DNA of 26,159 nucleotides, taken from contig JBGAOF010000001.1 of the NCBI GenBank assembly GCA_044221915.1, positions 1-26,159 on the forward strand. Direction: 5' to 3'. Made by a program: the position numbers and the translations under genes. The DNA is from Solirubrobacterales bacterium (GTDB lineage Bacteria; Actinomycetota; Thermoleophilia; Solirubrobacterales; 70-9). The notes under the pieces are model-generated. The model saw only the letters and a list, made by a program, of their open reading frames with translations. It made no database searches and was not told the origin of the DNA. Shown here piece after piece: positions 1 to 22,037 of this stretch (position 1 is the first letter of the stretch; every line of letters starts with the position of its first letter).

Positions 1-1091
1 TTCGGGTCGATCTCGGCGTAAAGCCGGACCGGCCCGGCTGCCCCGGCGTGGCGGGTCGCGTTGGTCATCGCCTCGCGACTGGCCGCGACCAGCGCGGCGG
101 TGTTCTCGTCCAGGGGGCGGTCACCCACCGTCACCGCGTCGATCGGGACCTCATGGAGCTCCTCGACTTCCGCCGCGACACCTCGTAGCGCGTCGGCGAG
201 CGAGTCGGCGCTCTCACCTTCGGACCTGCCGGAGAGCCATTCGCGAAGCTCGCGCTCCTGGGAACGGGCGAGAGTGGAAATACGGCGGCTGTCCTCGGGA
301 TTTTTCTGGATCAGGGCGAGAGTCTGGAGTACCGAGTCGTGAAGGTGTGCGGCAACCTCGGCCCGGTCCTCGGAACGGATCCGCTCGGCCCGTTCGGCGC
401 TGAGTTCCCGGGCTGAACGGGCCCAGAGGGGCGCGGCCACCATGCCGATCACGATCACCGCTGTCAATCCGGCCAGGGCCACATCACCACCGGCGCTGAG
501 CGCCCCGTTTATATAGAGGAAGAGCACGGCACCGCCGAGCAGGAGGGCGATTCCGACCCCACCGCGGAACGGCCCCGGCAAACCGCCCCGGCCTGCGGTG
601 CCCCGGGCCAGGCCCGAACCGGGGTCCGCTTCCCGCTGCTCTTGGCCGCCCGCCGACTCGCCGAACTGCCGCCAGATCAGGGCCGCCCCGGCGGCGGCAA
701 TGACCAGCGGCCAGACCAGCGAATCCGACCACCAGACCCCGGTTTCCCTGAAGATGAACAGAAGACCCAGAGTGACAAAACCGGCCCCCGCCGCAACCGC
801 CCAGGATCCCTTGAACGGCCGGGGCGGAGCGGAAACCCCGACTCGGGACCGGCTGCCCTGCCGTGGCTTCCAGCGCCGGATGCCGGTCTGGCCGGCCCCT
901 GCCGGCAGGGCTGCCCAGAGCAGCCCGTAGCCGATCGCGGCAACCCCGCCGGTGACCACGGTCAGCAGGACGGTCCCCACACGAACCAGGGTCGGATCGA
1001 CATTCAGGCGCAGAGCGATGCCGGAGCAGACACCGGCGACCATTCCACCTTCGGGGTCACGCGCAAGCCGCTTGTCGGGGGTTTCGTTCAG
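1..1091 (-). CDS. PspC-domain sensor histidine kinase (HisKA_3/NarX-LiaS type), C-terminus truncated by the window edge
   Basis: Not in the ORF track because no stop falls inside the window. I translated the minus strand at 1-480 and 900-1200. N-terminus LNETPDKRLARDPEGGMVAGVCSGIALRLNVDPTLVRVG is a PspC motif, followed by hydrophobic segments, the H-box EVAAHLHDSVLQTLALIQK (His codon 341-339) and the N-box REAMTNAARHA. Start is either CTG 1091 (overlapping the upstream TGA) or ATG 1043. Confidence 0.9.
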   Translation of the reverse strand, partial: MNETPDKRLARDPEGGMVAGVCSGIALRLNVDPTLVRVGTVLLTVVTGGVAAIGYGLLWAALPAGAGQTGIRRWKPRQGSRSRVGVSAPPRPFKGSWAVAAGAGFVTLGLLFIFRETGVWWSDSLVWPLVIAAAGAALIWRQFGESAGGQEQREADPGSGLARGTAGRGGLPGPFRGGVGIALLLGGAVLFLYINGALSAGGDVALAGLTAVIVIGMVAAPLWARSARELSAERAERIRSEDRAEVAAHLHDSVLQTLALIQKNPEDSRRISTLARSQERELREWLSGRSEGESADSLADALRGVAAEVEELHEVPIDAVTVGDRPLDENTAALVAASREAMTNATRHAGAAGPVRLYAEIDP

Positions 1092-2571: not shown

Positions 2572-2606
2572 GGGAATGACCCTTAGATGGCATCAGGGTT
2601 GTCCCG
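2572..2606. promoter_or_regulatory. Imperfect inverted repeat in the divergent pspC/merR intergenic region; candidate response-regulator site
   Basis: GGGAATGACCCT (2572-2583) N12 AGGGTTGTCCC (2596-2606), 39-73 bp upstream of the pspC start. Function is inferred only. Confidence 0.35.
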
Positions 2607-2667
2607 GGGTGGCGGACCCGGGGCCGGCGGCATCGCCGGGACGCTTTTCCGCCTACGATCCTCGCAG

Positions 2668-3435
2668 GTGGACGCGAAGAAAGTGACAGAAATCCGGGCG
2701 GGTGAGCGGATCACGATCGGTGATCTGGCCGAGCGGACGGGAATGACCGTGAGGAACATCCGTGCCCATCAGTCGCGCGGACTGCTCGACCCGCCTGTCG
2801 TGGTCGGCCGGACCGGCTACTACGGCCCGGATCACATCGGCCGCATCGAGCTGATCCGTGAGCTCCAGGAAGAGGGCTTCAACCTTGAGGCGATCCGCCG
2901 TATCGTCGCCAGTGCCGGGGAATCACCCGGGGAGCTACTCCGCTTCACCCGCGATGTGCGGGCACCCTACGAGGACGAGCAGCCCGAAGTGATGTCACTG
3001 GAGGAGATTTCACGGCCCTGGGGTGAAATTGATTTCGACCGGGAACGCCTGCGGCGCTCCGAGGCGCTCGGTTTGATGCGGCCGCTGGGTGACGGCAGTT
3101 ACGAGGTGCTTTCCCCGAAGTTGCTCAAGGCCGGCCATGAACTGGCCGCGATCGGCGTCCCGATCGACGATTGCCTCGATACCCTGGAAACCCTGAAGGA
3201 AAGGTCGCGCGCGGTCGCGGAGATCTTCATCGCCCTGTTTGACCGGCAGGTCTGGGAGCCCTTCGACCGGGCCGGGCGGCCGCGGAAAGATTGGCCGGAG
3301 GTCCGTGATTCGCTGCGTCGTCTCCGCCCGCTCGCTTCGGATGCCTTCATCGCCTCTTTCCAGTTCGCGATGGAGGAGGTTTCCGAGCGGGCTATCTCGG
3401 AAGGGATCCGGCGTGATCTCGGCGAGGAAAGCTGA
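2668..3435 (+). CDS. MerR-family transcriptional regulator
   Basis: MerR wHTH ITIGDLAERTGMTVRNIRAHQSRGLLDPP...GYYGPDHIGRIELIRELQEEGFNLEAIRRI. Start placed at GTG 2668, 8 nt after a TACGAT -10-like box (2654-2659). GTG 2683 or the track start at 2587 are alternatives. Confidence 0.9.
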   Translation: MDAKKVTEIRAGERITIGDLAERTGMTVRNIRAHQSRGLLDPPVVVGRTGYYGPDHIGRIELIRELQEEGFNLEAIRRIVASAGESPGELLRFTRDVRAPYEDEQPEVMSLEEISRPWGEIDFDRERLRRSEALGLMRPLGDGSYEVLSPKLLKAGHELAAIGVPIDDCLDTLETLKERSRAVAEIFIALFDRQVWEPFDRAGRPRKDWPEVRDSLRRLRPLASDAFIASFQFAMEEVSERAISEGIRRDLGEES

Positions 3436-4906: not shown

Positions 4907-7410
4907 TCTACGCCTGGGTCATCTTCCCCCTCGTCTTGCTGGCCCTTTGTGCCGGCCTTGGACTGCTGGCCGAAATGGTCCGCGGCCGGAGCCTGCCCTG
5001 GACCCTGTTGCCGGCCACCGGGCTCGCCGGCCTGATCGCGATCGGGGGCCTGATCACGACCATTCCCGCCCTGGCCCCGTTCACCACCGCAACCCTTGCC
5101 GGCCTGGCGATGGTCGGTTACGCCGGCCTTTTTACGGGCGGGCCGCGAGGCCCGGTGCGGCGGCCCCTGGGGAGAGTTGAATCCCGGCTGGTCTGGCCGG
5201 CCCTCGCGGCGGTCGGAGTCTTTCTTGTTTTCGGGGCACCGGTCATCCTCTCCGGTTCAGCCACCTTCGCCGGCTACATCAAGCTCGATGACACATCCAC
5301 CTGGCTTGCTTTCACTGACCATGTGCTGGCCCACGGTCATTCGGTGTCCGGTCTTGCCCCATCCAGTTACGAGGCGACCGTCCAGATCAATCTCTCGGCC
5401 GGCTATCCGCTCGGCGCGTTCATCCCGCTCGGGGTCGGCCATGAGCTGACCGGACAGGATTCAGCTTGGCTGTTTCAGCCATATCTCGCGGTGATGGCAG
5501 CGTTCATGGCCCTGGTATTCCACGAGCTCCTGACTCCGGTGGTCAGGGATCACCGCCTGCGGGCAGCAGCCGTTTTCTTCGCGGCACAGCCGGCCCTGCT
5601 GGTCGGATACGCATTCTGGGGAGGGATCAAGGAAGTGGCGACCGCCGTGCTGGTCGCGATCCTGGCGGCGGGGGCGGTCGAGCTCGCGGGAAATCCCAAA
5701 CCCAGAAGCGCGGTTGTGGTGCCGGTCCTTGCCGGTGCCGCCCTGATCGGAGTTATGGGGGCAGGCGGCCTGCCATGGCTGGCTGGCATCGGGGCCGGCA
5801 CGGCTTTCCTGATGCTTGCCGTTTCCTGGAAGACAGCCCGGCGGGGCGAGGCCCTCGCGGGGATGACCCGGGCGATGGCGGCCAGTGGGCTGCTGGCCGT
5901 GGCCGGGATCGCGCTGGTCGGCCTGCCGACGGTTTTCGCCTCGGGGAGCATGTTCTCCCCCGATCAGGGGGCCCTGACAAGGGCCTCGGAAGAGATGGGC
6001 AACCTGATCCGCCCGCTCAGCCTGCTGCAGTACCCGGGCCCGTGGCCGGTTGGCGATTTCCGGGTCGAGCCGGTTTCGGGGACCGCCAGCCTGGCCACCG
6101 GGGTTCTGGTTCTGGCGACCGTTCTCGCCGCCGGGTTCGGGCTGGTTGCGGCGGTATCCAGGCGGGCCTGGGGGCTCCTCTTGCTCACCTTCGGGACCGG
6201 TCTCGGCTCAATGGTGGTCTGGCTGATCGGCTCGCCCTGGGTTCAGGGAAAGGCCCTGGCGACCGGGTCGGCCTCCTTTCTGGTTCTGGCGATGGCCGGA
6301 ATCGGCTCGCTGATCGGGGCCGGCCGAAATGGGGACCAGGACAGCGGGAACGAGCGGAAACTGTTCCCCGCCCTGTCGGCGGGCGGGCTCAGGGCGATCG
6401 GAGCCTTGCTGTTGATCGTGCCCTGCGGGATTCTTGTTTCCAGTGCGTTGGCCTACCACGAGACCTGGCTGGCTCCGCGCGGCCAGCTCGCCGAGCTGGC
6501 CAGGATCGGCGGGCAGTTCCGGGGCGAGGGGCCGGCGTTGATGACCGAATACCAGGCCTACGGGGTGAGGCACTTCCTCCGGTTGCTCGATGCCGAAGGT
6601 GCTTCCGAGTTGCGGCGGCGGCAGATCCCCCGCCTCGACGGAACCGAGACCGAGAAGGGTGCCTGGGCGGACACCGATGAGCTGGTCCTCGACCCTGGCC
6701 AGGAGGGGCTTCTCACCTACCGGACCCTGGTTCTCAGGCAGGGTCCCGGGCAGAGCCGGCCGCCGTCTCCCTACGAGCTGAAGTGGCGGGGTGACTATTA
6801 CGAGGTCTGGCAGCGGCCGGAGCATCTCGACCCGGGCAGCATTGTTGTTCACAGGCCGCTGGGTGGCGGCCTCCAGCCCTCCGCGATACCGGATTGCCGG
6901 GTTGTCCAGGGGATTGCCTCGAGGGCGAGGGGCGGCTCGGTGGTGGCGGCGTTTCGCAGGCCGAACGCGGTGGCCCGGCTGGATTCCTACCCGCCCGGCT
7001 GGGTTCCCGACCCGGTCAACCGCACGTTGACTCCTCTTTCCGACGGTGCCGCCAGCGGCAGGGTGGAGGTCCCTGAAGCAGGCCGCTACCAGGTCTGGGT
7101 CGGTGGTTCCTCATGGGGCCTGGTTTCGGTTGAGGTTGGTGGCCAGCCCGCCGGCTCGGCCCGTGCTCTGCTCAACAACAACGCCCAGTTCATCCGTCTC
7201 GGCCAGCTTGAGCTTCCGGCCGGCTCCCTGCCGGTCCGGTTGAGCTACGAAAAGGGCAGCTCCCTGCGGCCGGCCACCGGCGGCTATCCCTTCGGCCTGG
7301 GTCCGGTTGTGCTCCAGCCGCTGGCGGGCTCGGGGATGGTGTCGCTTGCACCATCTGATGCGCAGCGGCTGTGCGGCCGCCGGCTCGACTGGATCGAAGC
7401 GGTCCGTTAG
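4903..7410 (+). CDS. Polytopic membrane protein, putative GT-C-fold glycosyltransferase
   Basis: ~835 aa with roughly 13-15 hydrophobic segments in the first ~510 aa. Acidic pair in the first large loop (GYIKLDDTSTWL), YPLG and GIKE motifs, and a large soluble C-terminal region ending in a beta-sandwich-like segment. Start is CTG 4903 (overlapping the upstream TGA) or TTG 4936. Coding status is clear; the function is inferred. Confidence 0.6.
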   Translation: MIYAWVIFPLVLLALCAGLGLLAEMVRGRSLPWTLLPATGLAGLIAIGGLITTIPALAPFTTATLAGLAMVGYAGLFTGGPRGPVRRPLGRVESRLVWPALAAVGVFLVFGAPVILSGSATFAGYIKLDDTSTWLAFTDHVLAHGHSVSGLAPSSYEATVQINLSAGYPLGAFIPLGVGHELTGQDSAWLFQPYLAVMAAFMALVFHELLTPVVRDHRLRAAAVFFAAQPALLVGYAFWGGIKEVATAVLVAILAAGAVELAGNPKPRSAVVVPVLAGAALIGVMGAGGLPWLAGIGAGTAFLMLAVSWKTARRGEALAGMTRAMAASGLLAVAGIALVGLPTVFASGSMFSPDQGALTRASEEMGNLIRPLSLLQYPGPWPVGDFRVEPVSGTASLATGVLVLATVLAAGFGLVAAVSRRAWGLLLLTFGTGLGSMVVWLIGSPWVQGKALATGSASFLVLAMAGIGSLIGAGRNGDQDSGNERKLFPALSAGGLRAIGALLLIVPCGILVSSALAYHETWLAPRGQLAELARIGGQFRGEGPALMTEYQAYGVRHFLRLLDAEGASELRRRQIPRLDGTETEKGAWADTDELVLDPGQEGLLTYRTLVLRQGPGQSRPPSPYELKWRGDYYEVWQRPEHLDPGSIVVHRPLGGGLQPSAIPDCRVVQGIASRARGGSVVAAFRRPNAVARLDSYPPGWVPDPVNRTLTPLSDGAASGRVEVPEAGRYQVWVGGSSWGLVSVEVGGQPAGSARALLNNNAQFIRLGQLELPAGSLPVRLSYEKGSSLRPATGGYPFGLGPVVLQPLAGSGMVSLAPSDAQRLCGRRLDWIEAVR

Positions 7411-10600: not shown

Positions 10601-11378
10601 GTTCAGCAGTTCCGAACCGGGCCAGTCCGAATGCAGCCTCGACGGTGGTCCCTGGCAGAACTGCTCCAGTCCCCAGACCTACACGGGCATGCCCGACGGC
10701 GACCATCATCTGAAGGTGCGGGCCACCGACATGTTCGGCAACCAGGGCCCGGTTTCCGGCCGCAGCTGGAAGGTCAAGCCGCTGGTCAACAATCCGCTGA
10801 CCGTTCCGGTGGCAGCGGCCTGTGATTTCGCCAGTCCCCAGGCTTCCTGCCGCAAGCCCACGGTGTCGGGCAAATTCCTCACCCGCCCCGGACGCACCGG
10901 TGCGAGCAAGGTTCAGCTCGAGATCAGTTCGTCAACCACCGATCTTTCGATCGCCAGGGTCCGCCTCGGCCGCAGCTCAAGCTACGTACTGACCAAGAAG
11001 GCGAAGGGCAAGACGGCACTGGTCGTGACGACCACCGATCGCAACAACCAGGCCCGGACCTACGTCTTCAAGGCGAACGGGACCGGCAAGGAAGGGGTTC
11101 GCACCCTGACCTCGACCGATGGCCAGCTCAAGGTGAGCATCACCCTCGGTGAGGAGCCGAACTTCGAGATCGCCGACCTTGGACCGGGTATCACCAAGGC
11201 GACCTTCACGATCCCGGCCTCCCGGCACTCGCTCAAGACTCGCCCGGCGACGAAACCGGTCCCGACCCAGAAGTGGTACGGCACCGCAATGGACCGGAAT
11301 GGCAACTGGGTCACTACCAGCATGTACATCGATCCACCACGAGCGAAGAACGCCGGCAAGAAGGGGGGCCATAAGTGA
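7662..11378 (+). CDS. Giant secreted surface protein 1: unknown N-domain, PKD-like, cadherin/Big_9-like, 6 two-Cys Ig-like repeats, basic C-terminal domain
   Basis: GTG 7662 follows AGGAGGT (7648-7654) at 7 nt; the track start GTG 7623 is an alternative. Signal peptide ends ATAEA|A. IEWDLD...GWYTVRTRVSD is PKD-like. LQYTIIDPPDHGTL...YSGNDSFTFQVDDG is Big_9/tandem-95-like. Repeat consensus FECSLD..W..C.SP...GL.DG.H...VRA.D.AGN. Confidence 0.85.
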   Translation: MNTVTHRSAHLRLIGAALCLVLAYIGFAGATAEAATPVILNSSNWLGSSRFAEKSDAYGQIAIVVQHDLGRKVTGLRIDHDKNGTDNTGSVGVTDVSTIAEQKNFQGGYAYTKVIYKFLPTSGGNGFSCNFIGSKIRSNSFPLRIRAQLDNGDQTATSTINATWQAGGDCGYVKDYGILWNPSQAATQVRPGQAVNFQVTGDDPDSVINEPDFSSVTPRLRNILTGEIIMGDQITGTGQDRVCNPGGDNNTMVFPVTFPKRGTWIVEASAGSSTHLLGPNCGAADNTGWYSLGVVSVNSLASVSPTANLTATRPVVNGSTSINALNVLDTADQPAGGLVQDIEWDLDFNAGNGIDGFEEGVRGNPDTGLPGGATARSINTTGYTPGWYTVRTRVSDNGASNGADNASARVIYTTQFLVDSIPSAAGQSHSITSLDNLPLTLQGTDTDVFPLMGVDDQADLQYTIIDPPDHGTLTPLSGAAGNETTYDPNGTNYSGNDSFTFQVDDGYGGIAVATVNIQVTPTTDINSAPNPMVDHNDRGASIGFSSPTEVGPGATLDHFECSLDYGSFAACSSLHNLTDLSDGLHNVRVRAHGGDSTVDASPAQAEWVVDAKPAVNFTTTPAADSGDPDPDFEFTTTEAGNTAPLDVTCKLDTDIRRPCDSPYALTGLEDGPHSLTVYAVDQYGKESSSTYSWEISQDGVLTNLVGSYPLFSNSPDQDFAFESNDIANTFECSLDDAAWSVCTTPDSLTGLADGQHTFKVRAKNPADVYDETPAAWTWKIDTAAPDTSIDDFNRAITNQVITARPKSNESNVSFVCSVDGGSFNPCSSPLTGPALADGNHSLDVAAVDRAGNVDMTPAGDNWLLDTVAPDSTITTGPSEGARLKVTNASFEFEFAPDATAVSAQCSLDGESWRDCDSNTTQAYAGLLDGSHTLRVRGVDEAGNVEASVSQRSWQIDTAPPTVTITSGPGGTVTDRIATFEFSSSEPGQSECSLDGGPWQNCSSPQTYTGMPDGDHHLKVRATDMFGNQGPVSGRSWKVKPLVNNPLTVPVAAACDFASPQASCRKPTVSGKFLTRPGRTGASKVQLEISSSTTDLSIARVRLGRSSSYVLTKKAKGKTALVVTTTDRNNQARTYVFKANGTGKEGVRTLTSTDGQLKVSITLGEEPNFEIADLGPGITKATFTIPASRHSLKTRPATKPVPTQKWYGTAMDRNGNWVTTSMYIDPPRAKNAGKKGGHK
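9216..10778 (+). repeat. Six ~87-aa Ig-like protein repeats, each with two Cys
   Basis: Manual parse of the translation. Units end AEWVV, SWEI, TWKI, NWLL, SWQI and SWKV. Units are diverged at the DNA level. Confidence 0.9.
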
Positions 11379-11407
11379 GGGCTTCGGTAAAGGGAGAAGG
11401 CAGGAGC

Positions 11408-14400
11408 ATGACGATGAAGATCAAGGCGATTCTCTTTGCGGCGGTTCTCGGAATGGTGGCCTTCGGGTTCACCTCCGGTGCCCAGGCACAGAAGGTTGGC
11501 AACCCGGGGATGTTTGACATCTCGGCGGTGTCCGGCTTCATGAAGGTCGGCTCGCTGGATCAGTTCGACCTCACCGAAGGCTCGCTTTCGCTGCCCGGCA
11601 CCGTCCAGGCCAACGGCACGGTGACCGTCGCCAACAGCGACATCGGGGCCCCCCAGTTCCCGCTTTGCGCCACCCCCGGCGATCCTTCATGTGAATACGA
11701 CGGGCTGGTAACCGTCAACATCGTCGGTGACCCGACCGGATCAGTCAATCCGCTGACCGGTGACGGAAGCCTGACAATCAAGATGTGGATTGCCGCGAAC
11801 GTGACCAAGCCGGTCAACGCGAACTGCACCATCGGTACTGCGCTCAGCCCGATCGTGATCCCGCTCACCACCGGGGTAAGCGGGACCCTCACCGGTGCGC
11901 CCTACAACCCCGACACCGGCCAGCTCACCCTGGTCAACGGAACCGTGGCGATCCCCGGGCCGTCCGGAGGTGGCCTCTGCGGCATTGTCGGTGGCCAGAT
12001 CGGCCTGCCGTCGGGCTCCGGAAACAACAAGATCAGTTTCACGATGCAGTTCACACCGCATGCCACGCGCGGCGTGCAGCCGGTGATTACTTCGTCCAAC
12101 GAAACAGTTGACGGTGGCCTGCTGCCGATGACCGGCTCGGATGCCGTTTCCAAGCCCGGCACGCCGCAGTTCCAGTGGGATTACGACGGCAACGGCACCT
12201 GGGACACCGCCCTCTCGGTCAACCCGAACACCACGCACACCTACTACGGACCGATCGGTACCGAACATCATCCCCGCCTCCGGGTGGTGGACGGTGACGG
12301 CGATTCCTACGTCGGCACCAAGACCATCACGATCGGCCCGGGGCGCGACCTTGCTGTTGAGGCGGCGGCGCTTGGCCAGTTCGACGTTGGTAACACCGGC
12401 ACCTTCCAGGTCAACGTGACCAACGAATCGGCTGTCAACATGCCCAACCAGATCACCGCGACCGGCACTCTGCCGGCGGCACTTCCGCTGAACAGCGCTT
12501 CCGGCGCCGGCTGGAGCTGCTCGATCGCGGGTCAGACCTACACCTGTACCCGTCCCAGCCTCGGTGCCGGGATCACGGCGCCACCGATCTCGATAAACGT
12601 CAACGTCACCGCGGCGGCGCGGCCGAGCATCAACACCACCCATTCGGTCCAGGCACCGCATGACCCGGTGGCGGTCAACGATTCGACCACGATCAACACC
12701 GAGACTTTCGCCACTGACCTCACGGTGGACAAGCGCCATGACTACGAGTTCCGGCCCGGTTCGGACCCGAAGAACGTGCATGAGATCGAAATCTCGAACG
12801 TCGGCAACATTCCGACCTCGACCCCGACCACGGTATCCGACACGCTGCCGGCCGGCCTGGTGCCGTTGACCGCGACCGGAGCCGGCTGGAGCTGCAATAT
12901 TTCCGGTCAGCTGGTCACCTGTAACTCACCCGCCGTGATCGGCGTCGGTCAGAGTGCCCCGGTGATCGAGATCACCGCCAATGCCGACATCGTGGCCGCC
13001 GGAGGCAACATCGGTGACACCAGCATCACGGTCAACAACACGGCCAGCGTGGCCAATGCCGGTGATGTCAACCCGGGCAATGACGCCGATACCGACCCGA
13101 CCATGATCATCGATGCCCCGGACCTGGCCCTGACCAAGAGCCATATCGGCAATCCGACGGCCGGCGATGACTTCGACTACACGATCACGGTTGTAAACCG
13201 CGGTGGCAAGGACACCGTCCAGCCGACCACGGTCACCGACACTCTCCCGGCGAACCTGACCTATGTCAGCGGAACCGGAACCGGCTGGGTCTGCAACGCA
13301 TCCGGTCAGGATGTGACCTGCACAAATAACGACCCGATCGTCTCCGATACCTCGGCCCCCGCAATCACGCTCACGGTTCACGCCGACACACCGGCGGATG
13401 TCGTCAACACGGCAACCGTCGCCAATGCCGACGACCCGCACCCGGCGAATGACCAGGCCAGCGATCCGACCTCGGTTCGCCTGATTGACCTTGATATCTC
13501 GGCCGAAGCGGTGGGAACCTACAAGGTCAACCGTGACGGTTGGCTGAGGATCGGACTGGAGAACCTCGGAACCTCGGCTTCCGCAAGTACCACGGTCGTC
13601 ACCTCGACCCTGCCGGCCGGCGTCACCTACTCCGATTTCGCCGGCACGGGCTGGGATTGCTCGGCCTCCAGCGGGTCGAACCTGTCCTGCTCGTACGCCG
13701 ATCCGATTGCCCCCGGCAACCCGCCCGCTGACCTCGAGGTCATGGTCAGCTTCGCCGCGCCGTCGGTTCCGGATTCGACGTTCAGCTTCCACGTCGCGAC
13801 CGACAACGACTTTGAACCGGGGAACGATGACGCCGGGTTCACCGCCGACGTATTCGCCCAGGATGTTGGCGTTTCGCTCAGCCACAGCGGCAGCTTCCGG
13901 GTCGGTGCCAACCGCACCTACACGGTTGACGTCGAGAACATCGGTACCGGCCCGACCAGCGGCCAGACCGATGCCGTCGTGGAGTTGGCGGCCGGATTGA
14001 GCTATGTCGGGTACACCGGCTCCCCCGCCTGGTCATGCTCGCCGTCCGGGCAGACCATCACCTGTGTTCACGCCGCCGCAATTGCGGCTGAATCCTCCGC
14101 CGACTCACTCGGCATTCAGGTGCTGGTCGGTCCCGCAGCCTGGCCGCAGGTGACCTCATCGGCCACGGTGAGCACCACCGGCGATCGCAACGGGACCAAT
14201 GATTCCGACGGTGACGTGGCCGATGTTGCAGCCCCGGATCTGACGGTTTCGACCAGTCACTCTCCCGCCTCCTTCCGGGTCGGGACCGAGGCCACCTACA
14301 CATTCGTTGCTTCGAATGACGGTGACGGGCCCACCACCAGCGATACGGTGCTGACCAGCACCGTTCCGGCGGGCCTCACCTTCCTCGATGCCGACGGGGC

Positions 14401-16123
14401 TGGCTGGGACTGTGATTTCACTGCTCCCGACCTGACCTGCACCATGTCGGCCGGCCTTGCCGCCGGCAGTGACGCGGCTCCGATCGATGTCACCGTCATG
14501 CCGACGGTGGCCGCCATGCCCTCGGTCCTCAATGAGGTCCAGGTCGCGGCCGACAACGATCACTTCATCGGCAACGACGGCGCATCCGAAACCATTCCGG
14601 TGACCGCGATTGATGTCGCCATCTCCCTCAGTGGCCCGCTGGGCACACTCGAGGTCGGCAAGGATGCGACTTACACGATCGCTGTTGCCAACGTTGGAAC
14701 TGCCGACACGATCAACCCGATTGCGGTCACCGGCAACCTGCCGGTTGGCGTTCTGCCCGGCGAGGTATCGGGCAACGGCTGGAACTGCAGCATCGATGTG
14801 TCCAACAGCCACAAGGTCGATTGCGTGCGTGCCGCGTCGCTTGGTGCCGGGGCCGCCGCTCCGGCAATCACAGTGGTCGCCGCGGTCAAGCCGAATGTGC
14901 TCAGCCCGGCTCAAACCACATTCTCGGTCACGACCACCGACGACATCCAGAACCTGAACGACGTGAGCAATCAGGTCTCCAACCCGGCGATTTCCGGTCC
15001 CAACGGCAGCGTGCTGCTCGAGCCGGACCTTGCTCCGGGAGCCAGCCTGCGGGTCGGTGACCACGGGACCTACAGGGTCAGGGTCCACAACGACGGCGGT
15101 TCCGCGATCAACGGCGGCACCACGGTTGATGTGGTCCTGCCGGACGGCCTGACGCCGGAAGTCTCCGGCAACTCCAACTGGCCTTGCGCCGTGAACGGCC
15201 AGACCGTGACCTGCACCCGGATTCCGGTGATACCGGCCGGGGAGAGCGCACCGGTTTTCCCGATCAACTTCATGGTGACCGACGAGGCTGCCAGCACCGT
15301 GACCACGACCGCCACCCTCGATGTTCCGGGGGATCTGGTGGCCGCCGACAATGAAGACGACGACGTCCAGAACGTGATCCGGACCGACGTGGCGGTGGCA
15401 CTTGCCTCGACCGGCACCTGGACAGCCGGCACCGACGCGGGCTTTGACATCAACGTCAGCAACGTCGGATCGGCCGACACCGTCGGGCCGATCACCCTCC
15501 AGTCGAGCCTGCCTGAGGGGGTCTGGTTCCTTGACGCCCAGGGCGGCGGGTTCACCTGCGCGCCCGACGGCACCATGCTCTCCTGCGAGAGGAGTGGCAG
15601 CCTTGCCGCCGGACAGTCCGCAGCCAGCCTCAGGGTGAACGTGCGGGTATCGAACACCCTGGAGGGCAGCCTGAATCTCGGGGCGGAAGTCTCGACCGTC
15701 GATGATGTCAACGACCTCAACGACAGCGCTTCGGTCGCCCAGCCGGTGGTGCTGCCGCCGGTGGTGCTGCGGCCCGCAACGATTGTCACGCAGCAGGCAA
15801 CGGTATTGCGAAGCGGTCAGTTCAGCGTTTCCGTGAGCTGCCCGGCCGATGCGACCAAGCGTTGCGACGGCAAGGCGCAGCTCAAGATCACAACCAGGTT
15901 GCGCCGGCCCGGCAAGAAGAAGCGCTTCTGGTCCAACGTGACCACCAACACTGTCCGCTACGAGGTGGCCCCGGGTGAAACCCGCACGATCTCGCTGAAG
16001 ATCAAGTCAGCTCACCGCAAGGCACTTGCGAAGCGCAAACAGGCCCGGGGTGTACTCACTCTGACGCCGACTTCGACACAAATACCCAAGACCACAGGCA
16101 CGGTGAACCTTGTTGCGCGGTAG
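11408..16123 (+). CDS. Giant secreted surface protein 2: unknown four-Cys N-domain, PKD-like, 9 DUF11 repeats, basic C-terminal domain
   Basis: AGGAG at 11402-11406 supports ATG 11408 or 11414; GTG 11375 overlaps the upstream stop. Signal peptide ends GAQA|Q. QFQWDYDGNG...THTY...RLRVVD is PKD-like. DUF11 signature DLALTKS...YTITVVNRG...TVTDTLPANLTYVS. Confidence 0.85.
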   Translation: MTMKIKAILFAAVLGMVAFGFTSGAQAQKVGNPGMFDISAVSGFMKVGSLDQFDLTEGSLSLPGTVQANGTVTVANSDIGAPQFPLCATPGDPSCEYDGLVTVNIVGDPTGSVNPLTGDGSLTIKMWIAANVTKPVNANCTIGTALSPIVIPLTTGVSGTLTGAPYNPDTGQLTLVNGTVAIPGPSGGGLCGIVGGQIGLPSGSGNNKISFTMQFTPHATRGVQPVITSSNETVDGGLLPMTGSDAVSKPGTPQFQWDYDGNGTWDTALSVNPNTTHTYYGPIGTEHHPRLRVVDGDGDSYVGTKTITIGPGRDLAVEAAALGQFDVGNTGTFQVNVTNESAVNMPNQITATGTLPAALPLNSASGAGWSCSIAGQTYTCTRPSLGAGITAPPISINVNVTAAARPSINTTHSVQAPHDPVAVNDSTTINTETFATDLTVDKRHDYEFRPGSDPKNVHEIEISNVGNIPTSTPTTVSDTLPAGLVPLTATGAGWSCNISGQLVTCNSPAVIGVGQSAPVIEITANADIVAAGGNIGDTSITVNNTASVANAGDVNPGNDADTDPTMIIDAPDLALTKSHIGNPTAGDDFDYTITVVNRGGKDTVQPTTVTDTLPANLTYVSGTGTGWVCNASGQDVTCTNNDPIVSDTSAPAITLTVHADTPADVVNTATVANADDPHPANDQASDPTSVRLIDLDISAEAVGTYKVNRDGWLRIGLENLGTSASASTTVVTSTLPAGVTYSDFAGTGWDCSASSGSNLSCSYADPIAPGNPPADLEVMVSFAAPSVPDSTFSFHVATDNDFEPGNDDAGFTADVFAQDVGVSLSHSGSFRVGANRTYTVDVENIGTGPTSGQTDAVVELAAGLSYVGYTGSPAWSCSPSGQTITCVHAAAIAAESSADSLGIQVLVGPAAWPQVTSSATVSTTGDRNGTNDSDGDVADVAAPDLTVSTSHSPASFRVGTEATYTFVASNDGDGPTTSDTVLTSTVPAGLTFLDADGAGWDCDFTAPDLTCTMSAGLAAGSDAAPIDVTVMPTVAAMPSVLNEVQVAADNDHFIGNDGASETIPVTAIDVAISLSGPLGTLEVGKDATYTIAVANVGTADTINPIAVTGNLPVGVLPGEVSGNGWNCSIDVSNSHKVDCVRAASLGAGAAAPAITVVAAVKPNVLSPAQTTFSVTTTDDIQNLNDVSNQVSNPAISGPNGSVLLEPDLAPGASLRVGDHGTYRVRVHNDGGSAINGGTTVDVVLPDGLTPEVSGNSNWPCAVNGQTVTCTRIPVIPAGESAPVFPINFMVTDEAASTVTTTATLDVPGDLVAADNEDDDVQNVIRTDVAVALASTGTWTAGTDAGFDINVSNVGSADTVGPITLQSSLPEGVWFLDAQGGGFTCAPDGTMLSCERSGSLAAGQSAASLRVNVRVSNTLEGSLNLGAEVSTVDDVNDLNDSASVAQPVVLPPVVLRPATIVTQQATVLRSGQFSVSVSCPADATKRCDGKAQLKITTRLRRPGKKKRFWSNVTTNTVRYEVAPGETRTISLKIKSAHRKALAKRKQARGVLTLTPTSTQIPKTTGTVNLVAR
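12344..15751 (+). repeat. Nine ~125-aa DUF11 (conserved repeat domain) units, each with a W/F-x-C...C pair
   Basis: Manual parse. Units begin RDLAV, TDLTV, PDLAL, IDLDI, QDVGV, PDLTV, IDVAI, PNGSV and TDVAV. Each ends in a D-x(4)-N/D-N/D-type motif. Confidence 0.9.
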
Positions 16124-16154
16124 GGAACAGGCAAAGGGAGACAAGGCTAGGAAA

Positions 16155-19100
16155 ATGGCAACCAAGAGGCTGAACATGATCAGGAAGGGAACCTTCAAGG
16201 GACTGGCTGCGGGGATGATTTCGCTTGCCGCGCTGTCAATCGGGGTAGCCACTGCCGAGGCCGGGTTCCCCGGCGGCAACGGACCGATCGCTTTCACCAG
16301 CACCCGTGGTGGCGCGACCGACATCTACAAGATGAACGTGGACGGCAGCGGGGTTACCCGTCTGACCAACGTCGGCACCAACACCTCGCCAGCCTGGTCG
16401 CAGGATCGCAGCAAGATCGCCTTCATCTCGAACCGGGACGGCAACGCCGAACTCTACGTGATGGATGCGGACGGATCCAACCAGACCCGTCTCACGACCT
16501 CGGTCGCGACCGAGTCCGACCCGGCCTTTTCGCCGGACAACAGCCAGATCGCCTTCGCCAGCAACGCGGGGGGAGACCGCGAATTGCATGTGATGGTGAT
16601 TGCCGATGCCCCGGCCAGCACCCAGATCACTGCCAACACCACCCAGGATTACGCGCCGGACTTCTCGCCCGACGGTTCCACTCTCGTCTACGAGCACTAC
16701 GCACCAGGCGTTGACCCGGGCAAGGGCTACCAGATCATGAAGATCCCGACCGTCGGTGGCACGCCCGTGAACCTCACTGGAACCTCGTACACGGTCGAAA
16801 ACGCCGACCCTGCCTTCAACGGTGACGGCAGCCGGGTCGTTTTCCAGAGCCGGAACAGGCCCGCCCAGAGCAACTGGGAGATCTACACGATGAACGCCGA
16901 CGGCAGCAACCAGACCCGTCGCACGAACGTTCCTTCCGCCGCCAATACGGCACCGGTCTACTCGCCTTCCGGCACCAACGGTCCGCTGGACCTTGGGACT
17001 CCCGAAAAGATCCTCTTCGTCTCCAACCGGACCGGTTCCAGCCAGGTCTTCGTCATGAACGCCAACGGGGCCGGTCAGACTCAGCTCTCCGATGCCGTCG
17101 GTTCCGACAGCGAACCGAGCTGGCAGGCGCTGGACATCTTCCCGCCCAACACCTCGATCACCGCCGGGCCGGCGGAAGGCGCGACGGTCGCGGCCGACAA
17201 CGCCGATTTCGCCATCGAATCAACCGAAGCGGGGTCCACCTTCGAGTGCCGTCTCGATGCACTTCCCGCAGTTGGAAGCTGGGGAGCCTGCAACGCGGCC
17301 TACAACACGGGGACGATCGCCGACGGGGACTACACGTTGAACGCACGTGCCATCGATCCGTCCGGCAACGTCGACCCGAGTCCGGTCACCCGCTCGTTCA
17401 CGATCGACACCACACCACCTGTGGTCGATCTGGCCGACGGCCCGCGAGGACCGTGGAACGGTGCCCGTCTCAACTTCACCAATCCGCTCTTCGAGTACAG
17501 CTCACCGGAGGATTCACCGACCAATGTGATCACCTTCGAGTGTCGCCTCGATCCGCCCGCCGACTGGGCTGACTGCACCGAAAACGGGAGCTTCCAGGCT
17601 TCCGGCCTCACCGAGGGCTCGCATACCTTCCAGGTCCGCGGGATCGACCCCTGGGGCAACGCCTCGGCACCGGTCGAGGTCACCTTTGTAGTCGATCTGA
17701 CCGAGCCGGCCACGACCATCGACTCGGGGCCCGCCGACGGGTTCTGGCTCAACAACGGCCATCCTTCATACGAGTTCACGGCTGATGAGCCCGGCACCTT
17801 TGAATGCCGGATCAGCGATTCCGGACAGGATTCCTGGGCTGCTTGTACGAGCCCCTTCGTGCCTTCTCCGGATCTGGCCGACGGACCCCACACCTTCGAA
17901 GTGCGCTCGACCGACCAGGCCGAGAACGTGGAAAGCACCCCGGCCAGCAGGCTGGTCAACGTGGATACCGTCGCTCCGGTGACCACGGTCCTGACCGGAC
18001 CCGATGCGGAGACGATTGATGTCGACCACGCATCGTTCACTTTTGATAACGACCAGCCGGAAGACGCCACCTTTGAATGCAACTTCAACGGCGGCGGCTG
18101 GAACGCCTGTGTCTCGCCGTTCGAGACCGGGACTATCAACAACGACGACTACACCTTCCAGGTGCGGTCAACCGACCGGGCCGGGAATCTCGGCGGACCG
18201 TCGGCGACTCGTTCCTTCACCGTCTACGCCCCGCCGCGTACCGTGGTCACGAGCGGACCGGCCGAAGGCAGTCACATCCCGACCGGCAGCCCCAGCTTCG
18301 AGTTCACCTCGGAAGGCGCCGGAATCGGCGAGACCCCGCCGACCTTCGAGTGCCGGGTTGATTCCGGTGACGAGAATGACTGGTCCTCCTGCACCTCGCC
18401 CCTGAACCTTTTCGGGCTGAACAACGGAGCACACACCGTTGAAATCCGGGCGATCGGACAGGGAGGCCGGCCCGATCTCACGCCGGTGGTCAGGAACTTC
18501 ACTGTCGACAAGGTCAACCCGACCACCGACATCGTTTCCGGCCCGGCCGAATCGTCACTGACCAACGATCCGACCTTCGGTTTCGCGTCGAACGAGCCGG
18601 GAACCTTTGAATGTTCGCTGGACGGTGGCGGGACCTGGACCGCCTGTGCCAGCGGCGTGCCGATCGCCGCTCCGGACGGGCCCGTGGCCCTGCTGGTGCG
18701 TGCCGTGGATCTCGCCGGCAATGTCGATCTGAGCCCGGCCAGTCGCAATTTCGATCTCGACACGGTCGCCCCGGACACCGTCTTTGACAGTGGCCTGGCC
18801 GACGGTTCGAGGACAAAGAACACGACCGAATCCTTCGCTTTCCACGGAACCGAAGCCGGCAGTCTCGAATGCAGCGTCGATTCGGGAGACTGGGCGGCCT
18901 GCAGCAGCCCGGAAGAACTGACCGGTATGTCCGATGGCGCGCAAAGCCTCGCCGTTCGGGCGATTGACGGGGCCGGCAATGTCGACCCCTCCCCGGCCAG
19001 CCGCAGCTTCACCGTTGACACGGTGGCACCGACAGCGACGATCACCAACGCCGCACCGGCCGAAGGCTCGATCGGCAGCAACCAGCTGCCGACCTTCACT

Positions 19101-22037
19101 TTCGATTCCAGCGAGAACATTTCACCGACCTTCCTCTGCCGGTTCTTTGACTCGCAGACCGACCCGCAATCGGTGAACTTCACCGCCTGCGTTTCCGGCG
19201 TCCAGCCGGGTGCACCGCTTGCCGATGAAACCTGGACATTCCAGGTCAAGGCGGTTGATGATGTCGGCAATATCCAGGCTGATCAGGCAAGCCGGACCTT
19301 CACGGTAGACACCACCGAGCCGGATACCACGATTGACAGCGGCCCGGCCGACGCCAGCACCGTCGACACCCCGGCGGTTGACTTCACCTACTCGTCGAGC
19401 CAGACAGGTTCAACATTCGAGTGTTCATACGTTTCCACCGGTGATCCCGAAAACTGGCAGTCCTGCCCGGCGGAGGGTGTCAGCTACACCGCCAAGCCCG
19501 ACGGCGACTACACCTTCAAGGTGCGGGCGACCGACCCGGCCGGCAACGTCGATTCGACCCCGGCCTCCAGCGCCTTCACGATTGACGCGCCGCCGTACGT
19601 TCACATCCTGCCGGCCAGTGATGTGGACGAGGGGGAGACCACCCGTCTCACCGAGCCGTCCTTCCAGTTCGACTCCGATGATCTCGCCGCGACCTTCGAG
19701 TGCCGCGTGGATCCGGTGGACGAGAACTCGCCCTGGACGGCCTGCAGCAGCCCTCATGCCACGGCCACCCTGGTTGATGGCGATCACACCTTCGAAGTGC
19801 GTGCCGTTGACGGCCAGAACCGGCCGTCGGTCACCCCGGCCTCGGTTCACTTCACGGTTGATTCCGTCAAGCCGGTGACCAGCTTCACGGTGGCCCCGGC
19901 TGACGGCTCGACGATCACCGACAGCTCGCCGGACTTCGACTTCACGGCCTCCAAGCCGGGATCGACATTCGAATGCCAGATTGACGGGGGTGGCTTCTCG
20001 GCCTGTGTGCCGCCGCAGACCCTCGGTCCGCTCGTTGACGGGAATCACACCTTCGAGGTGAAGGCGACCGACCCGATCGGGAACGTTGAAGCGCCCCCGG
20101 CCGCGGTTGATTTCACGGTTGACACGACGGCTCCGGTGACCACCGTCACCCAGCCGGCCGAAGCCCAGGCCTTCACCACAAATCAGCCGGAGCTGAACTT
20201 CACGGCCGGAGAGCCGGCCACCTTCAGCTGCGTGATTGATGGTGGCACGCCGTTCACCTGTGCCGACGGAGACATCACCGCCGAACTCGCCGATGGCGCT
20301 CACACCCTCGTGGTGACCGCCACCGATCTCGTCGGCAATCTGGAAACCGCTCCGGTGACGATCAACTTCACCACCGAGGCGCCACCCACCATCAACGTGA
20401 CATCCGGTATCGCCGATGGCGGGGTCAGCAACAACCCCGACCAGAGCTTCGAGTTCGAAGCCTCGGAAAACGACGCGACCTTCGAATGCCGGGTCGACTC
20501 GACCAACCCTGGCGATCCGTGGAACGTCTGCGCTTCGCCGGTTGATCTGACCGGTCTCAGCGAAGGCAGTCACAAGTTCGAGGTCCGGGCGGTCGCTTTC
20601 GCACCGCCGAATGATCCGTCGCTGAAGCCCGCCGTGCGGAACTTCACCGTCGACCTCACCAAGCCGACCACCGACATCACCGGCGGTCCGGCTGACGGAC
20701 AGACGATCATTGTGGACCAGGCCGAATTCTCCTTCGTCTCCAACGATGGTGGCCAGAGCTTCGAATGCCGGATTGATTCCGACGAGGTAGCCGACTGGGC
20801 GGCCTGCAGCTCCCCGGTTGCCCTGAACGGTCTTGATGACGGAGAACACAGCTTCGAAGTCCGGGCTACCGACCAGGCTGGAAACGTTGAAGATCCGGTC
20901 ACCGCGATCGACTTCTCGGTTGACACGGTCGCACCGGTGACCAACATCACCTCCGGCCCCGCGCAAGGGTCCTCGACTCAGAATCCGACCCCGAGCTTCG
21001 CGTTTGAATCGAGCAAGCCGGGATCCACATTCGAATGCCGGATCGACTCGGATGCCTTCGCTCCCTGCTCAAGCCCGTTCACAACCGCGGCCCTGAGCGA
21101 GGGTTCCCATACCATCCGGGTGAAGGCCACCGATGCCAACGGCCTCGGTGAAGTGACCCCGGTTGCCCGGACCTTCACGATTGATCACACCGCGCCCGTC
21201 GCGCAGATCACATCGGGAAGCAGCGGCCTGGTGAACAACCGGGTCTCGACCTTCGCCTTCACCGCCAACGAGGCCTCCAGCTTCGAATGCAAGGTTGACG
21301 GCGGGGCTTTCGCTACCTGCACGTCGCCGTTTGCGACCGAATCGCTGGCCGACGGCCCCCATTCATTCCAGGTGCGGGCCACCGACGCGGCCGGCAATGT
21401 CTCGACCCCGAAGAGCTCGGACTTCGAGGTGGACGCGACCGCACCCGAGGTGACGGTCACCAACGCTCCCCCCGCTTCCAGCGAGGCAACGACTGCCACG
21501 GTCGGGTTCAATGCCAGCGAGACCGCCACCTTCGAATGCAGCGCGGACGGCGGTGCCTTCGTCGGCTGCACGTCGCCGCTGACCCTGACCGGTCTGGCGG
21601 TTGGTGCCCACACGGTCCAGATTCGGGCAACCGATGCCGCTGGCAACGTCGGCCCGGTGGAGTCGGTCGGCTTCGAGGTACTGGCTCCCAAGGCGCCCGG
21701 CAAGCTGGCCCGCCCGAAGATCAAGGTTGGCAAGAAGCGGGTCAGGGGTGGAAGCACCGTCAAGGTGGCCGTCACCCTGAGAAACACCGGTGAACTCGCC
21801 GTGACCAAGGCGAGGGCCTGCCTGAAGACCCCGAAGAAGCTGATCAGCGGCAAGGCAACTCGTTGCCGGAACGTCGGCACAATTGCCGGTGGCTCCGCCC
21901 GCAAGGTGGTGTTCAAGCTGAAGGCCCGTCCTGTCCGCAAGACCACCCGGGCGTCAATCCAGGTCACGGCCAGTGGCCGCTCGGGCTCGAAGACCACGAC
22001 CGGCACGATCCGGGGTCACGTCACCCTGATCAAATAG
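16155..22037 (+). CDS. Giant secreted surface protein 3: TolB-like (PD40) beta-propeller, 17 two-Cys Ig-like repeats, basic C-terminal domain
   Basis: Start ATG 16155 or ATG 16176; signal peptide ends ATAEA|G. Six PD40-type blades (SPAWSQDRSKIAF, DPAFSPDNSQIAF, APDFSPDGSTLVY, DPAFNGDGSRVVF and others) span 16263-17132. Repeats span 17133-21683. Confidence 0.88.
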   Translation: MATKRLNMIRKGTFKGLAAGMISLAALSIGVATAEAGFPGGNGPIAFTSTRGGATDIYKMNVDGSGVTRLTNVGTNTSPAWSQDRSKIAFISNRDGNAELYVMDADGSNQTRLTTSVATESDPAFSPDNSQIAFASNAGGDRELHVMVIADAPASTQITANTTQDYAPDFSPDGSTLVYEHYAPGVDPGKGYQIMKIPTVGGTPVNLTGTSYTVENADPAFNGDGSRVVFQSRNRPAQSNWEIYTMNADGSNQTRRTNVPSAANTAPVYSPSGTNGPLDLGTPEKILFVSNRTGSSQVFVMNANGAGQTQLSDAVGSDSEPSWQALDIFPPNTSITAGPAEGATVAADNADFAIESTEAGSTFECRLDALPAVGSWGACNAAYNTGTIADGDYTLNARAIDPSGNVDPSPVTRSFTIDTTPPVVDLADGPRGPWNGARLNFTNPLFEYSSPEDSPTNVITFECRLDPPADWADCTENGSFQASGLTEGSHTFQVRGIDPWGNASAPVEVTFVVDLTEPATTIDSGPADGFWLNNGHPSYEFTADEPGTFECRISDSGQDSWAACTSPFVPSPDLADGPHTFEVRSTDQAENVESTPASRLVNVDTVAPVTTVLTGPDAETIDVDHASFTFDNDQPEDATFECNFNGGGWNACVSPFETGTINNDDYTFQVRSTDRAGNLGGPSATRSFTVYAPPRTVVTSGPAEGSHIPTGSPSFEFTSEGAGIGETPPTFECRVDSGDENDWSSCTSPLNLFGLNNGAHTVEIRAIGQGGRPDLTPVVRNFTVDKVNPTTDIVSGPAESSLTNDPTFGFASNEPGTFECSLDGGGTWTACASGVPIAAPDGPVALLVRAVDLAGNVDLSPASRNFDLDTVAPDTVFDSGLADGSRTKNTTESFAFHGTEAGSLECSVDSGDWAACSSPEELTGMSDGAQSLAVRAIDGAGNVDPSPASRSFTVDTVAPTATITNAAPAEGSIGSNQLPTFTFDSSENISPTFLCRFFDSQTDPQSVNFTACVSGVQPGAPLADETWTFQVKAVDDVGNIQADQASRTFTVDTTEPDTTIDSGPADASTVDTPAVDFTYSSSQTGSTFECSYVSTGDPENWQSCPAEGVSYTAKPDGDYTFKVRATDPAGNVDSTPASSAFTIDAPPYVHILPASDVDEGETTRLTEPSFQFDSDDLAATFECRVDPVDENSPWTACSSPHATATLVDGDHTFEVRAVDGQNRPSVTPASVHFTVDSVKPVTSFTVAPADGSTITDSSPDFDFTASKPGSTFECQIDGGGFSACVPPQTLGPLVDGNHTFEVKATDPIGNVEAPPAAVDFTVDTTAPVTTVTQPAEAQAFTTNQPELNFTAGEPATFSCVIDGGTPFTCADGDITAELADGAHTLVVTATDLVGNLETAPVTINFTTEAPPTINVTSGIADGGVSNNPDQSFEFEASENDATFECRVDSTNPGDPWNVCASPVDLTGLSEGSHKFEVRAVAFAPPNDPSLKPAVRNFTVDLTKPTTDITGGPADGQTIIVDQAEFSFVSNDGGQSFECRIDSDEVADWAACSSPVALNGLDDGEHSFEVRATDQAGNVEDPVTAIDFSVDTVAPVTNITSGPAQGSSTQNPTPSFAFESSKPGSTFECRIDSDAFAPCSSPFTTAALSEGSHTIRVKATDANGLGEVTPVARTFTIDHTAPVAQITSGSSGLVNNRVSTFAFTANEASSFECKVDGGAFATCTSPFATESLADGPHSFQVRATDAAGNVSTPKSSDFEVDATAPEVTVTNAPPASSEATTATVGFNASETATFECSADGGAFVGCTSPLTLTGLAVGAHTVQIRATDAAGNVGPVESVGFEVLAPKAPGKLARPKIKVGKKRVRGGSTVKVAVTLRNTGELAVTKARACLKTPKKLISGKATRCRNVGTIAGGSARKVVFKLKARPVRKTTRASIQVTASGRSGSKTTTGTIRGHVTLIK
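17133..21683 (+). repeat. Seventeen ~89-aa Ig-like repeats, each with exactly two Cys
   Basis: Consensus DTxAPxTxIxSGPAxG...FxF.S.E.G.TFEC..D...W..C.SP.....L.DG.HTF.VRA.D.AGN...P..R.FTV, parsed by hand. Confidence 0.92.

Follow-up and report, generated by a model that had tools for sequence, protein, structure and literature searches.

The wall-binding regions of Lactobacillus surface-layer (S-layer) proteins have a high isoelectric point (pI), vary in sequence while sharing a charge pattern, and, in one published account, are proposed to bind anionic wall polymers electrostatically (PMC3666127). The S-layer and S-layer-associated proteins described there (SlpA, CbsA, SlpB) resemble the proteins analyzed here in having a region of strongly basic character, the rest of the protein being different. 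Fibrillar adhesins that are anchored by sortase through an LPXTG motif are described as consisting of a signal peptide, an N-terminal head, a stalk of Ig-like repeats, and a C-terminal attachment element, and the same survey reports that nearly half of fibrillar adhesin-like proteins have no recognizable anchor (PMC8286594). In this work, we analyze a whole 26.2-kb contig (C111, hereafter the window) from a metagenome-assembled genome of Solirubrobacterales (2.0 Mb in 269 contigs, ca. 64% G+C, 79% complete). The window contains three tandem genes for giant, predicted secreted proteins, each of which ends with a strongly basic domain that has one pair of Cys residues (tails 1, 2, and 3).

The window tails share the high pI of the Lactobacillus regions (10.40, 11.82, and 12.00 for tails 1, 2, and 3, respectively), but give no Pfam match of the SLAP type. 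In contrast to the Lactobacillus regions, the modules studied here are predicted Ig-like beta-sandwiches, are always C-terminal, belong to several families, and are found in Actinomycetota; no gene for TagF-type synthesis of teichoic acid, the partner of the Lactobacillus proteins, was found here. The giant proteins have the same layout as LPXTG-anchored fibrillar adhesins, but have neither an LPXTG motif nor a hydrophobic segment, and no sortase was found in the genus; their attachment would thus be non-covalent. Tail 3 can be compared with the CARDB (PF07705), DUF11 (PF01345), and NEW3 (NPCBM_assoc, PF10633) domains, whose models match members of its family, with the difference that the terminal copies are supercharged. 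Type IX C-terminal domains of Bacteroidota (Por_Secre_tail, CHU_C) are similar in that a terminal Ig-like domain of ca. 100 amino acids (aa) is present on many unrelated secreted proteins of one lineage. Here, in contrast, the host belongs to Actinomycetota and several unrelated families occupy the same position; a Pfam scan of the three tails revealed no match to Por_Secre_tail or CHU_C even at E <= 10. To our knowledge, strong positive charge is not a feature of type IX C-terminal domains. We found no account in the literature of such tails in Solirubrobacterales or Thermoleophilia, nor of the anchoring of surface proteins in Thermoleophilia.

We show below that strong basic charge is enriched at the C-termini of exported proteins in this genome. 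A reading to which we would give an even chance is that the tails are interchangeable, charge-based modules of non-covalent surface retention; their binding, its electrostatic nature, and its partner are what we infer.

Giant Proteins with Acidic Bodies and Basic Tails

The three long open reading frames (ORFs) are located on the + strand, with their ends overlapping or nearly abutting; they were defined from the ORF list, translation, and scans with Pfam and NCBIfam. Protein 1 (P0001; 7623..11378, + strand; 1251 aa) begins with a signal peptide (ca. residues 1-47, cleaved between ..ATAEA and A), which is followed by an acidic body (pI 4.26, net charge -70) made of Big_9, cadherin-like, and Big_13/OmpL47-type repeats (Pfam, NCBIfam), with the basic tail coming last. 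Protein 2 (P0002; 11375..16123, + strand; 1582 aa), whose true start is probably the Met at residue 12, has a signal peptide (ca. residues 1-38, cleaved between ..GAQA and Q), an N-terminal region, and ca. 10 acidic DUF11 repeats ahead of its basic tail; its body has a pI of 4.05 and a net charge of -106. In protein 3 (P0003; 16110..22037, + strand; 1975 aa), where the Met at residue 16 is probably the true start, a signal peptide (ca. residues 1-51, cleaved between ..ATAEA and G) precedes a head formed by a TolB-like PD40 propeller, a long run of Big_13/OmpL47-type repeats (10 stretches, NCBIfam), and the basic tail; the body has a pI of 4.05 and a net charge of -172. All three signal peptides are of type I, and none of the proteins has a later hydrophobic segment. 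A signal peptide, a head domain, tandem stalk repeats, and a terminal putative attachment element, i.e., the layout of fibrillar adhesins, are thus present in the giant proteins.

Tail 1 (10779..11375, + strand; 199 aa) contains 31 Lys and Arg versus 12 Asp and Glu residues (net charge +19) and Cys residues at positions 15 and 24 (C-x8-C). The corresponding values are 25 versus 4 (net +21) and Cys 30 and 38 (C-x7-C) for tail 2 (15752..16120, + strand; 123 aa), and 31 versus 1 (net +30) and Cys 46 and 61 (C-x14-C) for tail 3 (21684..22034, + strand; 117 aa). These charge counts and Cys pairs exactly reproduce those given in an earlier note on this DNA, which had also described strongly acidic stalks, an abrupt flip of charge at the last repeat boundary, and alternating beta patterns in the tails. 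Each of these descriptions held: the bodies have pI values of 4.05-4.26, the sign of the charge changes within about one 50-aa window after the last repeat, and both folded tails (2 and 3) are all-beta or nearly so in AlphaFold2 (AF2) models. When followed in sliding 50-aa windows, the switch from negative to positive charge occurs at residue ca. 1026-1051 of protein 1, 1451 of protein 2, and 1826 of protein 3.

Basic C-Termini Are Enriched on Exported Proteins

Using a crude ORF calling of our own (GC3 rule) and a simple signal-peptide rule, also our own, we found a net charge of at least +18 in the last 100 aa of 25 out of 163 signal-peptide-like ORFs of the source genome, versus 6 out of 880 ORFs without a signal peptide (Fisher odds ratio 26, p 4e-16); at a threshold of +12, the numbers were 34 out of 163 and 24 out of 880, respectively. 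The 163 ORFs do not include 94 signal-peptide-like ORFs with a further hydrophobic segment. The possibility, raised in the earlier note, that basic tails might not be enriched among secreted proteins clearly fails in this genome. Among signal-peptide proteins with at least 300 mature residues, a charge of +12 or more was present in the last 100 aa of 32 out of 104, compared to 14 for the first 100 aa and 9 for any internal window, while the last 100 aa of proteins without a signal peptide had such a charge in 14 out of 553 cases. We conclude that the basic-charge effect is specific to the C-terminus. Of the larger secreted proteins encoded by this genome, about one in three ends with a basic tail.

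The passengers of basic tails include two subtilases, S9/S15 peptidases, a GH5 cellulase, a GDPD phosphodiesterase, and a metallophosphoesterase, as well as a beta-helix protein, a cupredoxin, a tannase-like protein, a PD40 protein, and Big/cadherin stalks. A Pfam scan of 29 basic-tailed proteins revealed a match in 18 of them and none in the other 11.

Charge Follows Position in One Fold Family

The dependence of charge on position is clearly seen with CARDB/DUF11-like domains. In this genome, 15 out of 17 terminal copies have a net charge of +15 to +28 (the two exceptions are -12 and +1), while all 22 internal copies have a charge of -16 to 0. Many of the terminal CARDB-like copies carry a Cys pair. 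At 24 loci from 15 other genomes of the genus, the best-matching CARDB-type copy ended 8 aa or less from the stop codon in 23 cases and 17 aa from it in one case; the charges of these copies, which were retrieved with a profile (A1, see below) built from basic domains and so lean basic, ranged from +14 to +42. An expansion of the CARDB-type basic tail is seen in the genus (15 out of 15 genomes, 4-38 matches each), and in the rest of the order this type is rare (3 out of 9 genomes). One terminal CARDB-like domain, at G000:C14:1981-3195 (- strand), is acidic (-12); this exception to the rule may serve as a natural control.

Families and Predicted Folds of the Tails

As judged by profile comparison, the three tails represent three families, relatedness between which was not demonstrated. 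None of the tails gave a Pfam or NCBIfam match above the cut-off, and pairwise BLASTP between them produced E-values from 0.19 to 58, in agreement with the earlier remark that they do not align with each other. The hhalign probability was 0.2% for the tail 1 alignment (A4) versus a tail 2 alignment (A3) and 18% for A4 versus the tail 3 alignment (A1); A1 versus either of two tail 2 alignments (A2 or A3) gave 55-59% over 44-45 columns. The tails had been called convergent or highly diverged; given these values, convergence fits better for tail 1 versus the other two, while tail 2 versus tail 3 can be read either way, and the latter two families may be distantly related. A single cluster comprising 27 out of 51 basic tails was produced by an all-against-all phmmer comparison (--max, E 0.01); it also held ribosomal protein L3 and was rejected as an artefact of composition, not homology.

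Tail 3 has paralogous tails in its own genome, which together form the 15-member alignment A1. At the family level, tail 3 is an Ig-like domain of the CARDB/DUF11/NEW3 clan, in a strongly basic terminal version. The CARDB model matches 7 out of the 15 members (best E-value 2.5e-7), the NEW3 model 5, and the DUF11 model 4 at E <= 0.01, while tail 3 alone scores 16.4 bits with CARDB (E 0.011), below the Pfam cut-off of 22.7 bits. The resemblance of tail 3 to CARDB and NEW3, noticed earlier by eye, is therefore a property of the family, with tail 3 itself staying below the threshold. Local iteration with hidden Markov models merged the tail 3 family with the DUF11 repeats of protein 2. The AF2 model of tail 3, built from a shallow alignment of 15 rows, is an Ig-like beta-sandwich of 8 strands with a predicted local distance difference test score (pLDDT) of 83.5. 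A Foldseek search with this model returned 145 PDB matches at E <= 0.001, including CARDB 3idu (E 2.7e-4, TMq 0.59) and other Ig-like domains. A word-index search for longer proteins homologous to tail 3 returned protein 3 alone.

Three relatives of tail 2 from the same genome yielded alignment A2, and addition of further relatives resulted in alignment A3, with 16 rows; tail 2, which is itself in A2, matches the A2 profile with an E-value of 9e-52. The nearest named relative (69% identity) is from Solirubrobacterales bacterium 67-14. The AF2 model of tail 2, built from a shallow alignment of 4 rows (pLDDT 81.9), is an Ig-like beta-sandwich with one short helix, HRKALAKRKQ. When this model was used in Foldseek and VIA-align searches, only generic Ig-like matches were obtained (Calx-beta, PapD-like chaperones, an archaeal surface-protein domain), with a best Z of 8.8. 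The 50 VIA-align matches listed contained no wall-binding or type IX C-terminal domain, a result that excludes nothing. Out of 16 family members, none had a match in Pfam and one had a weak match in NCBIfam, and a PDB sequence search with A3 revealed nothing below an E-value of 0.42. We regard tail 2 as a member of an uncatalogued family of C-terminal, basic, predicted Ig-like domains.

Our working definition of membership in this family, which tail 2 satisfies, is a profile match together with terminal position and net positive charge. The family was found in 35 out of 41 related genomes (20 out of 24 in the genus and 14 out of 16 in other families of the order) and in 16 out of 81 genomes sampled over the class, while about 140 genomes of the phylum from other classes contained none. 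At 11 out of 11 loci, the domain ended 0-12 aa before the stop codon and had a charge of +22 to +30. An exhaustive profile search of 1.84 billion representatives revealed 4208 proteins at E <= 0.001, of which 139 were at E <= 1e-10. The best 150 of the 4208 were searched again locally, and 137 of them contained a near-full-length domain, with 148 domains altogether. In this set, 135 domains end 30 aa or less from the C-terminus (the remaining 13 are mostly the first of two tandem copies), 140 have a charge of +10 or more (median +21), and 138 have a C-x4-12-C pair near the domain start; 70 out of 76 longer bodies are acidic. The 13 proteins that dropped out of the best 150 are very long (2500-7700 aa) and contain 8-23 short stretches matching profile positions ca. 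47-80, which are probably a repeated basic beta-hairpin motif or an effect of composition.

Tail 1 belongs to a small family of ca. 200-aa tails (A4), whose other members are from the G111 orthologue, the C99 paralogue, and a G016 homologue. The alignment spans the whole length and has 12 invariant columns, which include both cysteines. A single-protein search with tail 1 revealed no match in 40 relatives, and the family surfaced only through the orthologue loci; a protein-atlas look-up was uninformative (scores of 0.77 or less). A second Cys pair, located near ..CG/CA.. and ..C[VL]R.., is kept in the L039, L018, and L040 tails and absent from tail 1 of the window.

Conservation of Charge and Exchange of Tails between Related Operons

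A paralogous three-gene operon, L018 (G000:C99:144-12312), codes for proteins of 1202, 1561, and 1293 aa, which match the window genes with E-values of 1e-185, 3e-237, and 8e-211, respectively. Related operons were also found in genomes G016, G022, and G111. In 14 out of 15 complete giant genes from these operon loci, the last 100 aa have a charge of +15 or more; the exception is protein 1 of the window (+7). Comparison of bodies and tails gave identities of 48.7 versus 31.5%, 47.5 versus 30.1%, 38.3 versus 28.1%, and 74.9 versus 69.1%, with the compared tails having charges of +19 to +30. By this measure, the tails diverge faster than the bodies, with the charge being kept. In the window, the third gene codes for a CARDB-type tail; its C99 and G016 homologues have a fourth, unassigned type of basic tail, which, in the C99 protein, matches none of the window tail profiles. 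In G022, a tail of the tail 2 type is found on a giant gene. We conclude that the tail module is exchangeable, but its charge is not.

Anchoring Systems of the Envelope

The negative results of this section mean "not found in the genomes searched". None of 16 genus genomes, most of which are at least 90% complete, yielded a sortase (PF04203), versus 6 out of 9 genomes from other families of the order. No LPXTG-type C-terminus (the motif, then a hydrophobic segment, then a basic end) was found among 1980 ORFs. SLH domains (PF00395) were found in none of 25 genomes and on none of the three tails, and TagF-type teichoic acid polymerase was also not found in any of 25 genomes. The search for polysaccharide pyruvyl transferase (PF04230, CsaB) was negative for all 16 genus genomes and positive for 3 out of 9 others. 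LCP ligases, on the other hand, are present in 25 out of 25 genomes, mostly two per genome. We conclude that the usual Gram-positive anchoring systems are not in evidence in the genus; a wall-linked glycopolymer, hinted at by LCP ligases alone, is plausible.

The earlier note had proposed that the tails are anchors binding anionic wall polymers, or else a C-terminal sorting signal. Its description of different tails that have charge, position, and, partly, the Cys pair in common is supported; a role of anionic wall polymers would be conjectural, as TagF was not found in any of 25 genomes, nor pyruvyl transferase in 16 genus genomes.

Proposed Function of the Tails and Alternatives to It

Surface retention by charge would operate as follows. 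After export by Sec and cleavage of the signal peptide, the proteins would have neither a membrane anchor nor a covalent wall anchor. Each tail would be a compact, disulfide-capable, beta-rich domain with exposed faces covered with Lys and Arg, and this polycationic last domain would stick non-covalently to an anionic component of the envelope, whereby the acidic stalk and the N-terminal head (or an enzyme, in other proteins) would be kept at the cell surface. Selection would maintain the net charge and the terminal position rather than a particular fold or motif. We favor non-covalent retention because of the charge of the tails, their position, their enrichment on exported proteins, the conservation of charge among orthologues, and because the usual anchors were not found in the genus. 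The presence of several families without demonstrable homology in the same position argues, though not conclusively, against a motif-specific receptor. A scenario in which the basic tail is left untranslocated in the cytoplasm was dropped, as there is no membrane-spanning segment.

A bolder version of this proposal, which we put forward tentatively and with some doubt, is that a genus lacking sortase displays a large part of its exoproteome by means of a charge code that does not depend on fold. Retention would then take no more than one of several unrelated C-terminal domains, each supercharged (+15 to +40), and tails would be freely swapped while charge is kept; the anionic envelope polymer would be something other than a TagF-type teichoic acid or a pyruvylated SLH ligand.

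Several points weigh against surface retention by charge. Tail 1 is the least extreme of the three, its charge being spread over 199 aa, with only +7 in the last 100. The related genomes are not independent samples, the enrichment depends on crude calls of ORFs and signal peptides in an incomplete genome, the A1 profile favors basic matches by its construction, and the models of tails 2 and 3 come from shallow alignments. Tails of the tail 2 type also occur in those families of the order that have sortase, and so are not a simple replacement for it. No anionic partner emerged from the searches for TagF and, in the genus, for CsaB.

The strictly terminal position of the tails would also be expected if they were C-terminal sorting or secretion signals, i.e., if a dedicated machinery recognized the terminal Ig-like domain and then perhaps cleaved it off or coupled the protein to an envelope component, as with type IX C-terminal domains in Bacteroidota. 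The tails modeled here are predicted Ig-like beta-sandwiches of ca. 100-120 aa, and type IX domains are of like size and fold class; passengers are many and unrelated, and the families are confined to one lineage (see the class and phylum counts for tail 2 above). We nevertheless consider this explanation unlikely. A specific receptor is expected to need a conserved signal, and at least three families with no demonstrable homology or common motif are found here, even on homologous proteins; there is no Por_Secre_tail match in Pfam, and no candidate machinery gene is located beside the operon (PspC, MerR, an unannotated membrane protein, and secE-nusG-rplKAJL are), though no search was aimed at type IX machinery. 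The same charge evidence that supports retention at the cell's own surface would also fit binding of external anionic material (for instance, extracellular DNA, acidic exopolysaccharide, humic substances, or mineral surfaces), in which case the tails would be modules of adhesion to matrix or substrate. Hydrolases, which are frequent among the passengers, would profit from sticking to a polyanionic substrate or matrix, no pathway for a wall polyanion was found (TagF, pyruvyl transferase), and the Foldseek list for tail 3 contains a DNA-bound Ig-like domain (AlkC, 5vhv), as one of many generic Ig matches. The architecture of the giant proteins, however, mirrors that of anchored fibrillar adhesins, with putative adhesive heads (PD40 propeller, cadherin-like) at the opposite, N-terminal end, and if the C-terminal end were adhesive as well, nothing would tie the protein to the cell; we therefore doubt this explanation to about the same degree as the sorting signal.

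The charge asymmetry within one polypeptide (net -70 to -172 in the bodies versus +19 to +30 in the tails) could instead mean that basic tails bind acidic stalks of neighboring molecules, resulting in a head-to-tail coat or network on the surface, similar to an S-layer or a gel-like matrix. The existence of several giant proteins in tandem, and of a second, paralogous three-gene operon, would fit such an assembly, but the same tails are present on small enzymes with only mildly acidic bodies, and we consider this explanation quite improbable. Least probable of all, to a degree that we would be surprised to see it confirmed, is that the charge serves no particular purpose and is a side effect, for instance of drift in the composition of terminal domains that evolve fast, or of what acidic proteins need for folding or solubility. 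Faster evolution of the tails than of the bodies and the only moderately basic character of tail 1 speak for it. It is contradicted by the way charge depends on position among domains of one fold family (of the terminal copies, 15 out of 17 are basic, versus 0 out of 22 internal ones), by conservation of charge across families, orthologues, and library representatives (the best 150 of 4208 examined), and by the restriction of the enrichment to exported proteins.

Electrostatic wall binding as a kind of mechanism, as well as the clan of tail 3, are already known. What is new is a tail 2 family that is not yet catalogued, a small tail 1 family, a charge that depends cleanly on position among domains of one fold family, and the extent to which such tails are used by a lineage for which our searches found no sortase, SLH, or TagF. 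If surface retention by charge is true, a simple sequence rule (a domain that is terminal, folded, and strongly basic) would predict surface-retained proteins in an abundant soil lineage; an unannotated domain family with at least 4208 representative clusters would deserve a model in family databases; and an anionic component of the envelope would have yet to be found. The tails could also serve as tags for the display of proteins on such cells.

Neighboring Genes and Other Basic Tails

Upstream of the operon, at 3-2533 (- strand) and 2587-3435 (+ strand), the window contains genes for two adjacent PspC-domain proteins (347+ and 481 aa), which are divergent from a gene for a MerR-family regulator. 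Two small ORFs and a gene for an 824-aa polytopic membrane protein are also located upstream. Downstream of the operon are secE, nusG, and rplK-rplA-rplJ-rplL. No functional link between these neighbors and the tails was found. The gene for the 824-aa membrane protein (4936-7410, + strand) immediately precedes the operon, and neither Pfam nor NCBIfam provides a match to the protein. The protein has at least 1212 homologues at E <= 0.001, all named hypothetical, from records of Solirubrobacterales, Thermoleophilia, and Gaiellaceae; besides a near-self top match (99%), they are 43-76% identical to it among the matches listed. Its gene is not present upstream of the G111 orthologue.

Two more observations concern basic tails outside of the families described above. 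A DUF3089 protein with a signal peptide (L070; G000:C4:4520-5956, + strand) has a Lys-rich tail (+24), which, by its sequence, looks helical rather than beta-rich and would represent a further structural type of basic tail. Another recurrent type, with the motif NRKKGTATL.VKV...G.V.L and the ending ..V.V.YTP.GG.....V.L, is found at G000:C230:2746-4683, C214:1566-3647, and C51:1-1164.

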